Assembly: GCA_964016885.1 (NCBI GenBank) | Contig: OZ024745.1 | Span: 126,728,001 to 126,792,000 of the forward strand | Length of the DNA: 64,000 nt | Origin: Eledone cirrhosa | Lineage: Eukaryota | Reading direction: 5' to 3' | Shown: in pieces, positions 24,721-64,000 of the stretch | How the letters are laid out: each line of letters opens with the position of its first letter | How positions within the stretch are numbered: the first letter of the stretch is position 1 | Program-made: the position numbers and the translations under genes | Notes under the pieces: model-generated | Told to the model about the DNA's origin: nothing | Database searches by the model: none | The model's input: only the letters and a program-made list of their open reading frames with translations

Positions 24721-26336
24721 GTAAAGCATGACTTTGTCTTTCAAGCAGAGTAATGGCAGAAACTACATTTAATTTCAAACTTTTCTATTCTGAGTTCATA
24801 TCTTGTCAAGCTTGACTTTGCCTGACAGGAAGTATAGTGACAACAGTATTTAATTTCATGCCTTTACATTTGGAGTTCAAATCCTATCAAGCCTGACATT
24901 GTCTTTCATTCTTTCTGCATGTACTAGATATGTAGTGTTGTTGATTCAAGTAACTATTCCCTCTGCAGTGGTAAGAGTTGTAGACTTAATCATAAGCTCC
25001 ATGAAAACCAACAATGTGATACAATTTTAGTAAAAAAAAAATCATTAAATTTTATTTATAAGCAAAACAAAAACGAATAATGTGTTCTTCCACAAATGTT
25101 TCAAGTGTCTGGATTATGCATGCATGGAGCAGTCACAGAAGCCGATCAGCTCCATGTAGCTCTGATCTATTGTTTATTTGTGACTTCTGTGAGTTGATGA
25201 TTAGAGCCTCTATAATTCATAAATTCCCCACATTCCATTCTGGTAAGGAAGAACACAGCATTCATTTTTGTTTTTGCATTTTGAAAAGAATGTATTAACC
25301 TTGAAATATTATGTTGAAATATACTGGGACAGAAAAACATCACTGTTTTTTTTTTGTTTTAATTGTCATCTTCACCTTTTATTTCTACCACATTCTACTG
25401 GCTTTCTGAAATACTTATCAATCATTTATTACACACACACAGTCTAAACACTGTAAATGTGGTTGGTGTAAAGAAGGGCATCCAGCAGCCAGGTTCAGCA
25501 TGGCCAACTGACCAGACTTGTTTCATAATGTGGACAACTTGTCTAACCTATGCAACTATGCAAACATGAAAAAATAGACGTTAAATGGAGATGATAATAA
25601 TGATGATGATATATATATATATACATTAAGAAAAGGAAGAGAGAGTTTATATTCCAATGCTGAGTATTGAAATGTTAACACCTCTTCAATGTCAAAATCA
25701 AAAACAGACCATTTTTTATTTACATTTGTACTTCCTATCTGACGACAACACATTGAATAATTATTGAATAAAGACTTTAGATGCCTTTGAAATGTACATA
25801 ACAGACTATTTATTTCCTCTTATGTACACTGATACAACAATTATTTTAATTGCACAATTGAGTAATTAGTAACCATCAGGAAGAACATCTGAACAAAGCA
25901 CCCAGTCCACCCTGTGAGTTGGTTGTGCTAGTGCCATGACAAAAAGAACCAGTCCACTCTGTAAGGTGGTTGTACTGGTGCCATGTAAAAGAACAGTCCA
26001 TTATGTAGGTGGTAAAGCTGGTGTCACAGAAAAAGTTCCCAGTACAAGCTATAAAGTGATTAGTGTTAAGAAAAGCATCCAACCATAGCAAACCAGGCCA
26101 AATGAGCAATATGGTCACCTGGCTGGTCTCACCTCAAACCCATGCAAGCATCGAAAACAGACATAAAACAGTGAGGATGAAAGTGATAATGATGATGATC
26201 TTAATCAGCAAAACAACCCAATTCAATTCATTGAAGATCAAAAAATAAAATAAAATAAAATAAAACAAGAATAAAAAAAATAGAAAACAAATTATTGTTA
26301 TTTTAAAGTATTCTTGTAAATAGAAAAAGTACTTAC

Positions 26337-26839
26337 GAATGCAGAGTTGCAAGGGCTTGTCCCATTTCTTCAATTCTAAAAGTGTTTTGATTTAGCATGT
26401 CAATGGAAGGGACAAATATACAAGCAGATTCCGGGGAAGGTGCATAAAATTGACTCTTAGCAATTGTCTGTACAATCTCCATAAATTCAGGAGAGATGGG
26501 CTGGGAAATACCAATTCCTTTCTCATCCACAAATTTCTCAAAAGGATATACATATACACTTATTTTAGTTTCATCATTGTAACCACAGTGATAAACATCC
26601 ATACATGTGTGGAAGATGCAGTCTTGATTATGAGGTAATGGATGGATGTGAGATGGAGTTATTTTAACTTCTTTACTTTTATCAGCAGTATAGAAAGAGA
26701 AATGGTAAGCTTCAGGTGGTTTGTTTGACTGAGGCCAAAACAAAATGGCTGTTACCATTAATGTGAAGACCAGTATTAATAAAAAGAACAAGTAACTGTT
26801 TTTATAAAATGTTCGCATCATTCTAGGTCTCCCAACCAT
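26337..26839 (-). CDS. EXT2: Exostosin-2 (heparan sulfate co-polymerase), first coding exon
   Basis: Type II TM segment, then CIFHTCMDVYHCGYN...KISVYVY...KFVD...ACIFVPSIDMLNQNTFRI, matching EXT2 (human CRMHTCFDVYRCGFN...ACLFVPSIDVLNQNTLRI). Phase-2 donor TC|GTAAGT at 26336; pyrimidine-rich CAG acceptor at 26866-26868, so the exon spans 26337-26865. Confidence 0.95.
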
Positions 26840-29358
26840 GATTGGTATTTATTTTTTAAAAAAAACTGAAAAAGAAAAAAAAAAATTTGTGAATTGAAAA
26901 TATTTGCAAACTTTTTGAAGAAAAATATACGATATTTCAAACATTGATACAAGGCTTTCTAATTTACAGACAAGGAGGATGAGATGTGAGAACAGTGCAC
27001 TTCCTATAAAATTATTAGCTTACCAGTAATTCCTCATTAATTTGATAACCATGTTAACCATAACCCTCTTGATATCAAACTGCCTGATACGACAGCTGGT
27101 TATATGATTAAAGAAAAAAAACTTTGCTTTAAAGAGTTCATAAATATAAACCTTCCCTTATAAATTCATGTAACTTAATAAATGAGAAAGTTAGTTATTT
27201 TACTAAATCCTTCCAAATTCTTTATTATTTTCAGAATTAATTGAAAGACATAAGCAGTGTATTTCATTAGAAATATAGTAACAAGTGTTAAATACTCTTC
27301 AGAATCAGAAAATACAGCAATATTGAAGAAGGTGCTGAGTCTATGAACAATTTGATTTATATTAGCTGGAATAGAATAAAGTACCAGTAATGCACTGAGT
27401 TAATTGTTGGCCTTCTGCCAAAAGTAGAAACAATTATACATACAATTCTATTTTCGCAGTAAAGTTTTTATCTCACATAATATTGAGTCTATGAGGTTTT
27501 GATATTATTTAATTAGACATAATACCTTAACATCAGTATGAGTGGCCAGTTACAGTCAGTTTAAACAGAAAAAAGTGAGAGATTCAGCTGGTTTAAATGC
27601 TAAAGGGTTAAAGAAAACAAAAGTAGGTTTCAAAGTACATCATTTATCTCAGTTGGTTGATGTATTTGACCAAGCAAGAACAGTATTGCTAGAAATGTGA
27701 CATAAGCTAACGATGATGATGATTTCTTACATAGTTCACAAAATTTAACCACCCTTGCTTCCAAAATACTAAGCTATTTATTTCAAAGTGCTTGTATTTA
27801 TCTCGAGACTTTCCATCAGAATTTTATGCAAGAACTTATGTTAAGTTATGTTCCAAACACCACCTTAACTCTTCAGCATTTGCCTTACTCTACATATACT
27901 ATTATATTTTCATGATAAAGGCTTTACCTCACATAATTATGTCACATGATGTCGAATCTGAGATTCTGATATTATTTATTTTGAGAACAATACTTTAACA
28001 TCAGTATAAGTGACCGGTTACAGCTAGTTTGAACAGAAAAGGTGAGAGAATTCTGGTCGGATATGTCAGGTTTAAATGCTAAAGGGTTAATAATGAGAAA
28101 GTTAGTTTTATTATCATACCAAATCCATCGAAATTTTTGATTATTTTCAAAATGATTTGAAAATCATCAGCAATGTTTTTCATTAAAAATAAGATAATGA
28201 AAGACCTCACTACTTGACAAGTACCAATTTTATCCATCCTGGAAATGGAAAATACAGTCAACTATAGTGAGATTTCAACCCAGAACTTGAATGAGCATAA
28301 CTAAATACTATTTTTTGAAATCATTTTTAATAGTTCATTCCAAAATATTGATGGAGTCAAATATTTTTGTAGGGTTTGAAATTAATTATTATTCATAGTG
28401 AACTGATACAACTCAACTAACTCTTCCTTTAACATGAATGCCCTAAACATCTAATATGCCATCTGTTTGCCTTGATTTCCGGATGTCAGTTTAAAGTATA
28501 TACATCTTCACATTCATACTTTATCTTAAATGCAAAGATGATAAATAATTTGTGTGATAGTTGTGATCTGGATTAAGATACCCAGATAATGTACAACATA
28601 CTTCCTGTAGTTTGCCTGTTCACTTCCTATAGATGTCTGAAAATGCTACTTAGAATCCAAAAGGAATTTACAAACTAAAACTAGTGATAGTGTTCGAATT
28701 ATGTTAGTAAATTAACAACATAGTCATAGTATGAGTTATGATATTGGGGTAAGGGAGCAGCTGGCATCATGTCCTACATATGTATCAACAATAAAAAGTG
28801 TTTTGCTAATTATATAATTTTTAAAAATTTATTAATCCATACATTTGTTATTACTTTCATATAAAATTAAGCTTTAAGAAACTAAATCGGGGTAAAATGT
28901 TCCAGGTTAGATACATGTCAGCTAGTTCACTAACCCTTTATCATTTACATTACTCTATACATACTTTGTATTTGTGCGGTAAAGGCTTTACCTCACATAA
29001 TATCGAATCTATGAGATTTTGATGATATTTATTTTGAAAACAATACATTAACATCAGTATGAGTGGCTAGTTATGGCCAGTTTGAACAGAAAGATGTGAG
29101 AGAATTCTGGCCAGATACAGTTTAAATGCTAAAGGGCTAAACAACTTTTATTGTAATAGGCCTTCTTTGTGTAACTAGTCACATGAAACAAGAGAGGAAA
29201 TAAGCAGTAGAATTCACATGAATAGAGTAGCAAAGATACTTCTTTGAGGATATGAATCATATGCAGTGATGTAGCTAGAATGTCTGCTGCCTGGAGCAGC
29301 CCTTCAGTTTGCCGCCCCAGGGCCCGCACAAAAAATACATATTGATCACTCTTAAAGT

Positions 29359-35280: not shown

Positions 35281-35343
35281 ATTATATCTTGTCTGATGAG
35301 GATGTACTTTTGTACCTCTGAAATATGTATAATAAAATTTAAT
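35281..35343 (+). ncRNA. Minimal type I hammerhead ribozyme, partly degenerate
   Basis: AUUAUAUCUUGU-CUGAUGA-GGAUGUAC-UUUU-GUACCUCU-GAA-AU-AUGU-AU-A-AUAAAAUUUAAU; two stem I mismatches and one in stem II. Confidence 0.65.
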
Positions 35344-60836: not shown

Positions 60837-62324
<1,488 letters not shown>

Positions 62325-62606
62325 GGAACAAGTAAGACCCCTTCGTTATCTAGCTCCTATCCCCGTAGTAGAGCACTTTCCGACCCTACCACGCCTTCCT
62401 TCGTTGTATATATATATATATATATGTAATAAATACAATATCGGAGAAAGCTTTTTAGCGATACTCCGGCCAAATTCCAACTCACTCAACAAACATTAGG
62501 AAATAAGTCATTAGATTCCCAATTATGTGTTCGGGGTGCTAACTAAAAGTATTGCGTGGAAAATTGGCTGTATTATTTCAAATGAGACATATCTAATACA
62601 TCTCTT

Positions 62607-62733
62607 CCCAGACGGACGTCTCGTTTCATTATAGGATTCCTACAATTTGGGTGAAATTATACCAATTTATGTAGGAACTTGTATACCATCAATAGATATA
62701 TATTCAAGTGGGCTCCTATAATTCATCAGTGGG
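62607..62733 (-). ncRNA. Type I hammerhead ribozyme with large branched stem II
   Basis: Minus strand: CCCA-CUGAUGA-AUUAUAGGA-[77 nt]-UCCUAUAAU-GAA-ACG-AGACGUC-CGU-C-UGGG; core 62723-62729, GAAA 62624-62627, GUC 62611-62613. Confidence 0.85.
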
Positions 62734-64000
62734 TGCCCCAATAATACTAATATTGATAATCTAACCAACATCAGCATTTAGCGATAATCACTTTCTGTTG
62801 TGCCTGAGGTATCTGTCAGGTTGCCAGTCCAGCAGTTCTAAAGAAGTGCTCGAACTGATTCAAAAAATGAGGAAGTGAATTACCGCCAAAAAAACAATAC
62901 AAGCGCGTGACAATGAACTCTGAAAGGAATTCAGATATATATGTATATATATATATATATATAGTTATACTTGGGAGTTTTTTGATCCTCTGTGTTCGGA
63001 CCTGGTGTACATGAGAGATGGTGAGGGCGAGAGAGACAGAGGCGATGACAGTGGGATTTTGGTTCCACTGTGTTCGGATCTGGTGTACATGTGTGTTTAA
63101 TTTTACACTGTCAACCTTTTGCTTTCCATAATTTTCTTGGTACTACACAAGTAATAGTTCTTAATCATATCAACTGAAAGAGCAATCAAATATTCAACAT
63201 CTCTCTCTCTCTCTAATTATTTATATCATAACATATTAGCTGCTCTTCAAATTGACAGTGAAATGTTAAATATATTTAGTATTAGTGAACAATGATTGCT
63301 CTCGTATTACCAACTAGTCTATAAACACAATAGGAATCACTACCAACACAGATAACATCAACAGCAGTAATTGTAGTTAGTTTTTTTATCTGCTTATTGA
63401 TGACGATCTCTTTATCTAAAGTAAACAGTTTACATTCTAATCATATAAAGAAGACTTGTTGAAGGAAGTCTATTATGCAATACAAAATTTACTTTTGTCT
63501 TTCTACCTACTGATTTCAAATCTCGCTGGGGTTGGCTTTGCCGTTAATTCCTTCAGGGTTGATAGAAAGGTGCTGATCATCAGATCAGAACAAAGAAAAC
63601 ATGTTTCATGTCTCTCCATTCCATTGCAATGCCTGGTAAAAAGAGGTATGATTTGAACTCGGAATGCACAGAGGTGGATTAGATACAGCAAAGCATCTTC
63701 TCAAACTCTTTAACATTTCCCTGGAAAGAAGAAAAGCGAAATTGATCTCAATGGGATTTGAACTCAGAAAGCTGGAACAAATACAGAAGCATATAATCTG
63801 ATGCTCTAATGACTCTGCCAATAAAGGTTGATAAAATATATGCTATTAATGCATTTAAATCAATTTACTTTGTTAGATTCTCATCCACCACCCCGCCCAA
63901 TTTAACCTGATGCCTAATAGAATGGTTTCTTTATTCACAATAATGGTTTCTTTATTCTTCATGCCTAATAGAATAATATCAAAATTCCCTTGGTGGTATC

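Follow-up and report, generated by a model that had tools for sequence, protein, structure and literature searches.

Closest described systems

The hammerheads of Penelope-like elements (PLEs) are described in the accessible text of PMC4209133 as minimal motifs with a helix I of 4 to 5 bp, a helix II of 7 to 8 bp and a palindromic helix III. They cleave as dimers, and the descriptor given there limits loop 2 to 3 to 10 nt. According to the same text and to the available portion of a preprint (10.64898/2026.07.22.740005), most such motifs show low or no activity in vitro. PLEs have a (TA)n bias and form partial tandems, and the available sections of PMC8557442 call the role of the hammerhead in endonuclease-bearing PLEs unclear. 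In the accessible part of PMC11167929, the PLE protein nicks AT-rich DNA, reverse transcription starts at an internal RNA position downstream of the hammerhead, the template is mainly uncut RNA, and the protein is needed for cleavage. Pseudoknots between stems I and II are reported for about 40% of hammerheads in the available text of PMC3088659.

Here, we analyzed a motif on the minus strand at positions 62607 to 62733 of the window (the whole stretch of 64,000 nucleotides) together with the repeat that carries it. Like the PLE minimal hammerheads of PMC4209133, it combines a 4-bp helix I lacking loop 1 with a long helix II base (9 bp, in keeping with the helix lengths given there), a palindromic helix III suited to dimers, and AU-rich flanks. 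It differs from them, as far as the accessible text describes them, in four respects: a 77-nt three-way-junction domain replaces the 3- to 10-nt loop 2; the G10.1-C11.1 pair with an extra base beside position 9 is A-U in family A and U.U in family C; loop III has 7 nt in family A; and a coding partner was not found among 60 GIY-YIG loci. Because stem I, the stem II base, and stem III lie within PLE norms, these parts are ordinary and the domain is the only new one.

The repeat also resembles metazoan non-LTR retrozymes (PMC7229834; 10.64898/2026.07.22.740005; available portions), which are likewise noncoding and low in GC, consist of head-to-tail units with type I hammerheads, co-occur with PLEs, and are found mostly as monomers and short arrays. 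Retrozyme units measure 170 to 400 nt in the former source and 51 to 972 bp in the latter; those described here span ∼700 to 770 nt, above the first range and within the second. Retrozymes, as these texts present them, carry canonical hammerheads with loop-loop contacts and express their monomer RNA in linear as well as circular form; the present repeat has a PLE-type hammerhead and a 3′ end fixed ∼185 nt beyond the cut. Like the Anolis Poseidon element PAc (PMC11167929), it ends at a fixed 3′ position downstream of the hammerhead, has targets rich in AT, and reads through the hammerhead in most insertions. For PAc, the accessible text reports no RNA ends at the cut and finds cleavage dispensable in vitro, while the genomic copies described here mark the cut. 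In the available literature we found neither a natural stem II branched in this way nor PLE-type copies with 5′ ends at the cut site, although some supplements and subscription papers may bear on both points.

We assign a probability of roughly 75% to the following reading: the motif is a hammerhead of type I whose stem II bears a conserved three-way-junction domain, it belongs to a retrozyme-like repeat copied by a Penelope-like (Neptune-type) enzyme, and it cuts in vivo after GUC.

Architecture of the hammerhead

The earlier note, made from the letters of the window, had described an intact core, a 9-bp stem II base, a GUC site, and a 4-bp stem I, and every coordinate agrees on the minus strand. 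The 5′ strand of stem I (CCCA, 62730 to 62733) pairs with UGGG (62607 to 62610), the first bases of the 3′ cleavage product. The core elements CUGAUGA (62723 to 62729) and GAAA (62624 to 62627) are read directly from the letters, and the 9-bp stem II base (62714 to 62722 with 62628 to 62636) is supported by two-sided change and folding. The predicted cut lies between 62611 and 62610, after the GUC triplet (62611 to 62613). The order CUGANGA, GAAA, NUH with an open stem I is kept in all subfamilies, and the cut triplet differs among them (GUC, GUU, or GUA). The window copy has A-U at positions 10.1-11.1 and lacks the extra base beside position 9; across 23 aligned sequences, these positions are G-C in 5, A-U in 6, and unpaired in 12.

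In the segment from the GAAA core element to the cut (62611 to 62627), stem III would be weak as a monomer (3 bp with a 7-nt loop), and its sequence is palindromic. The predicted self-duplex has an energy of −14.7, −10.0, and −6.4 kcal/mol in families A, B, and C, respectively, and the monomer fold is absent. It is at the equivalent of 62610, directly after this segment, that the 5′ ends of genomic copies pile up (see below). The palindromic stem III, the host element, and these 5′ ends are additions to the earlier reading.

The 77-nt branched insert reported in the note is present at 62713 to 62637, with its two hairpins. A 5-nt linker, GCCCA (62709 to 62713), turns the stem II domain into a three-way junction and is a candidate pseudoknot strand. 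It is followed by hairpin P2a (62678 to 62708), whose base is conserved by covariation and whose distal part is variable, and by hairpin P2b (62637 to 62677), which consists of a conserved stem, an internal loop, and a 3-bp apical GGW/WCC stem (62663 to 62661 with 62652 to 62650) absent from the earlier reading. The hairpin P2b had been given an 8-bp stem; its eighth pair is unpaired in 18 of the 23 aligned sequences and is thus restricted to a few copies, leaving a conserved stem of 7 bp. Just 5′ of stem I lies GGGC (62735 to 62738). It is predicted to pair with stem I in a competing hairpin and might, hypothetically, pair with the linker in a pseudoknot instead. A small intron within the arm was considered and rejected, as the insert lacks GT..AG ends and its sole internal GT is missing in family B (by eye).

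The expectation that standard descriptors would miss this motif was borne out. Rfam gave no hammerhead match in the whole window at gathering score, nor at E values up to 10 in positions 62250 to 63000, and the published minimal descriptor, with its loop 2 limit, would miss a motif carrying a 77-nt domain. Three further hammerhead cores, with stem II regions of 12 to 26 nt, occur on the plus strand of the window at 35293, 44185, and 49601; they match motifs downstream of PLE open reading frames (ORFs) in loci L234/L227, L233/L101, and L108, respectively.

When the minus-strand region was folded, as the note had proposed, both hairpins and the 9-bp base of stem II appeared in the predicted fold without constraint. 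The predicted energy of the 95-nt stem II domain is −25.3 kcal/mol, compared with −14.7 ± 3.1 for shuffled sequences, of which 2 of 500 were as low; for a 151-nt region, the z score is −2.11 (6/200 shuffles as low). Stem I, in contrast, is displaced in the window copy's predicted fold by a local hairpin with the upstream GGG (pair probability of ≤0.01), and the hammerhead-constrained fold reaches −30.1 against a minimum of −37.0 kcal/mol.

The host repeat and its copies

The motif lies in a single, nontandem, 5′-truncated copy of family A (62428 to 62934, minus strand), which aligns by BLAST at 95.8% identity with positions 199 to 705 of a tandem unit from locus L018. The letters and BLAST alignment delimit (TA)n target sequence on both sides, at 62407 to 62427 (3′ flank) and 62935 to 62963 (5′ flank). 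The full unit of ∼708 nt is noncoding and was taken from L018, where three hammerheads lie ∼708 nt apart; unit lengths of 708, 709, and 740 nt exceed the 170 to 400 nt given for retrozymes. Its GC content is 35%, and its longest sense ORF has 47 codons' worth of amino acids (47 aa). A 126-codon stop-free stretch runs antisense opposite the hammerhead at L018:1827-2534 and is probably due to chance. The segment between the cut site and the fixed 3′ end (62428 to 62610, 183 nt) is the most conserved long part of the unit (79 to 83%) and is likely the part recognized by the reverse transcriptase (RT). Within it, at unit positions ∼590 to 615 (window ∼62520 to 62545), a CCCC...GGG pair is kept in 11/11 representatives and pairs in the circular fold, which makes it a candidate RT-recognition hairpin.

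A DNA search of the 3.0-Gb genome returned 1,320 candidates, and the 40 scored were 98 to 100% identical. An exact core with stems I and III and an 80- to 110-nt spacer retrieved 497 genomic copies (reversed control, 0). Looser patterns gave 1,979 and 2,452 matches, the latter counting some copies twice, so that hammerhead-bearing copies number about two thousand. The insert spacing is fixed across the 1,979 matches. In contigs and DNA reads, the repeat was seen in organisms A and B and as short pieces in organisms C to E.

Family A was scored at 83 loci (90 minus 6 duplicates and one array overrunning its locus). The 3′ end falls at unit position 695 or later in 79 of them, with a TA-rich 3′ flank in 78 and a TA-rich 5′ flank in 60. 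The 5′ starts range over unit positions 1 to 678, a distribution biased by the choice of loci that hold a hammerhead. Head-to-tail tandems are present at 26/83 loci, the longest array seen comprising 2.7 units; an inverted 5′ copy was found at one locus (L015), and a 30- to 40-bp tail was found at none. Apart from the target itself, poly(A) or simple-repeat tails are absent. This anatomy (fixed 3′ end, 5′ truncation, partial tandems, and (TA)n) fits a nonautonomous Penelope-like element.

We considered whether the repeat was instead moved by a LINE, by rolling-circle DNA transposition, or by satellite expansion. A fixed and a variable end with head-to-tail units also suits rolling-circle elements, and the 60 GIY-YIG loci yielded no PLE partner. 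Two copies, moreover, appear to end in Helitron-like fashion (L005, at unit position 611, and L049, at about 410 to 670), with a TC start and hairpin plus CTAG ends, which we take to be the Helitron signature. These ends belong to insertions nested within repeat copies, and other copies continue to the common 3′ end; the Helitron reading suggested by L049 was therefore rejected. A solo 507-bp LTR with a primer-binding site (LTR/TRIM) was rejected as well, since the full unit has variable 5′ ends. Apart from the target there is no tail, 5′ ends located where RNA is cut imply an RNA template, arrays are short, and adjacent units have few rare variants in common; all of this speaks against a non-PLE mover, which we consider improbable.

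Several neighboring features are recorded here in their own right. A different repeat ends at 62330 to 62405 (minus strand), past the (TA)n 3′ of the element; by eye, its last ∼17 bases resemble the end of a coding element in locus L244, and it and the host copy use one common microsatellite. The L244 element (minus strand, ∼570 to 2515 in reverse-complement numbering) is a GIY-YIG element of another clade with a hammerhead-like motif at its 3′ end (long stem II, hairpin stem III), and its fragments interrupt family A copies in L015 and L016. A degenerate telomere-like hexamer array lies ∼270 bp 3′ of a family C copy (L241:4228-5000). Two family D copies in L238 (2663-2987 and 7260-7584) have identical hammerheads 4.6 kb apart with no coding ORF between them and likely reflect local duplication. 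The window also contains a 171-aa open frame at 26333 to 26848 (minus strand) with a weak exostosin GT47 match (E value of 1.7e-5, below the curated cutoff), which is probably a host exon; the element sits 36 kb upstream of it on the same strand.

Conservation and covariation of the stem II domain

Looser patterns uncovered further subfamilies (A2, A3, B, C, and D), with unit identities of 62 to 71%; the three-way junction persists in these relatives, with compensatory changes. Given 23 sequences, RNAalifold recovered stem I, stem II, P2a, P2b, and the apical GGW/WCC stem unprompted and mispredicted stem III. For 42 named pairs across these sequences, 92.7% of the cells are paired, compared with 35 to 46% in slid controls. 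Two-sided changes occur in 68 cells; this number and the covariation score exceed those of all 500 shuffles, while the number of pairs with two-sided change (13/42) was equaled by 58 of the 500, and all such counts are inflated by kinship. The changes reflect few independent events on the tree.

By helix, two-sided change affects one pair of stem I, 3/9 of stem II, two of stem III, and 4/9 of P2a. The outer pair of stem I goes from C-G to U-A in families B to D, and the stem III palindrome changes on both sides among subfamilies. In the P2b stem, changes are C-G/U-A and U-A/A-U, and 6/8 pairs never vary. Among 11 subfamily representatives, pairwise identity is 93.5% for the linker, 90 to 92% for the P2b stem strands, 95.5% for the upstream GGGC, and 97% for the core, with the qualification that the family C and D representatives were found with a pattern containing GGCA (three bases of the GGGC) and GCCC in full; the P2b stem did not form part of this pattern. 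The GGGC and GCCC motifs were still in the majority in an unselected list of matches (by eye). The junction-near parts thus stand at 90 to 96%, compared with 59% for the 5′ body, 63% for distal P2a, and 68% for the P2b loop.

We conclude that the domain is under selection for structure. The atypical architecture proposed in the earlier note is conserved and covaries in homologues, which keep both the insert and its pairing, the reverse of the outcome that the note had named as speaking against it. Its description of the domain as inserted fared less well, as pattern searches did not find an amplified short-armed ancestor of the clade. A short stem II (6- to 36-nt spacer) with an exact core, stem I, and this stem III had 0 matches genome-wide. 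When only the start of stem I was held in common, short spacing gave 22 matches (control, 5), 9 of which belong to the clade: two are single deletions (L263 and L277), the rest have an internal GAAAC, and none is amplified. As the short-armed members of the clade are single deletions only, an insertion event is conjectural.

The other 13 short-spacing matches form a separate group with no detectable homology to the 3′ region of families A to D (10/13 among the matches listed). They lie at about positions 1500 to 1560 of loci L258, L259, L264 to L269, L271 to L273, L275, and L276, and are possibly a distant sister group; their stem II regions span 19 to 37 nt, stem III is long, and stem I has 6 bp.

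Genomic 5′ ends at the predicted cut site

Family A copies with a 5′ junction at unit positions 500 to 529 and an AT-only flank numbered 47. In 20 of these, the junction falls at unit position 523, the first base after GUC and the equivalent of 62610. Under a simulated null in which junctions were uniform and the flanks were those observed, 4.7% would fall at this position (P = 6.9e-15). The remaining junctions comprise 13 spread upstream and 14 located 1 to 5 bases downstream, 8 of the latter at one position. Nearly all copies starting at cut+1 (19/20) are ∼185 bp long, so that they begin at the cut and stop at the fixed 3′ end. The 20 copies show 86 to 97% identity and fall into two sequence variants (8 and 12 copies); since they differ in age and variant, they represent separate events rather than one clone. 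Families B to D give a weaker signal: of the first 100 of 166 copies, 8 start at the cut, ∼21 start upstream, and most others start downstream in AT-rich sequence with ambiguous junctions (by eye). Copies starting at the cut are a few percent of the family, and most insertions read through the site.

The same ends might arise if the RT stalled at the folded hammerhead or if junctions formed by microhomology, with the ribozyme inactive or irrelevant. The U at cut+1 provides one base of microhomology with (TA)n, 8/47 ends also cluster five bases downstream, and the accessible part of PMC11167929 reports no reads at the cut site for the Anolis PLE. However, flank microhomology is already part of the simulated null, the other positions of the 30-nt interval that start with U have 1 end each, and the core and NUH site are retained in all subfamilies. 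Helix-induced RT stops, moreover, are expected 3′ of stem I and not past it. We therefore judge stalling or microhomology to be a poor explanation. The ribozyme likely cuts itself after GUC in the animal, as far as genomic sequence can indicate, and 5′ ends at an RNA cut site point to an RNA template.

Proposed mobilization

Applying the PLE biochemistry in the available part of PMC11167929 to this repeat, we infer the following route. Tandem loci would yield multimeric RNA, in which two hammerheads may pair through the palindromic stem III and then cut. A borrowed GIY-YIG/RT protein would nick (TA)n and prime inside the RNA ∼185 nt 3′ of the cut (position ∼705). On cut linear RNA, the RT would run off at the cut, giving the ∼185-bp copies; on uncut multimers or circular RNA, presumably the majority case, read-through would give longer copies and partial tandems.

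Candidate sources of the protein are plentiful, as the genome contains many elements with RT and GIY-YIG domains, and most of those read carry a Neptune-type cysteine linker (a label taken from the linker description in the accessible text of PMC8557442). None of 60 GIY-YIG loci, out of 10,595 candidates, contained an autonomous partner sharing the 3′ end; the sole sequence these loci share with the unit is one nested copy. An ORF check of 20 further loci likewise found no coding partner. Adjacent tandem units are 97.0% identical on average and beat the best other locus in 3/27 pairs, and they share 16 rare variants against 244 unshared. So few shared rare variants argue against local satellite growth, while they do not separate a circle from a linear multimer.

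What the domain may do

Our leading guess, held at somewhat less than even odds, is that the domain is a folding aid. It would hold the GCCC linker in place for pairing with the GGGC upstream of stem I, and the resulting pseudoknot would both remove the hairpin that blocks stem I and replace the missing loop 1-loop 2 contact, as canonical loop-loop elements are absent. In the hammerheads of PMC3088659, as far as its available text shows, a 4- to 5-bp pairing beside stems I and II may similarly replace loop-loop contacts; here the candidate strand differs in being the junction linker of a branched stem II and in not covarying. We favor the pseudoknot because both strands are near-invariant, single sequences fold in this way, it frees stem I, and such pairings are common in hammerheads. 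We hold it no more firmly because its four pairs are invariant and show no covariation, a fifth pair is broken in 10/23 sequences, and its geometry is doubtful: with 9 bp in stem II and 4 bp in stem I, the contact would be a stretch.

Alternatively, the domain may be a tolerated elongation that folds on itself to stay aside, the hammerhead functioning as an ordinary minimal dimer with no need of it. Stem II length does appear free in the hammerheads of this genome (14 to 50 nt at PLE loci and 19 to 37 nt in the separate group), distal P2a and the P2b loop vary like the body, and selection merely to remain folded would also yield covariation. On the other hand, the linker and P2b stem are 90 to 94% identical in sequence, beyond what pairing demands, across units only 62 to 71% identical, and the spacing is fixed, broken in the clade by single deletions only. 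We regard this alternative as having about one chance in four, and we give the same modest weight to a binding site for the partner RT or a host protein, serving RNP assembly or protein-assisted cleavage, with no RNA tertiary contact. Such a site would be expected to conserve sequence with little covariation, as the P2b stem does, and according to the accessible text of PMC11167929, cleavage by the hammerhead of the Anolis PLE requires protein. That text, however, places the minimal RNA for insertion between +20 and +172 of the ORF, with most of it lying 3′ of the cut, and the 19 short copies starting at cut+1 imply that RNAs without the domain were evidently copied, although the protein may have loaded before the cut. 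A role outside the folding aid, the protein site, and tolerated elongation seems improbable.

Implications

The motif is real, probably active, and a new structural variant in a known class of element. More tentatively, and with the odds against it, it may define a new subclass of hammerheads that are switched on by a three-way-junction module on stem II through a linker-to-leader pseudoknot, the genomic copies preserving, as fossils, the in vivo cleavage of Penelope-mobilized RNA. If this holds, cut RNA would serve as a template, which would offer a direct handle on the purpose of Penelope hammerheads. The genomic 5′ ends mark the cut to the base, a property testable in any long-read genome, and the natural branched domain, with its six or more diverged versions, lends itself readily to structure-function work. 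Finally, as some two thousand hammerheads in one genome were missed by Rfam and by the published descriptor, ribozyme counts may be too low, and claims that some groups of elements are hammerhead-free may likewise underestimate hammerheads.
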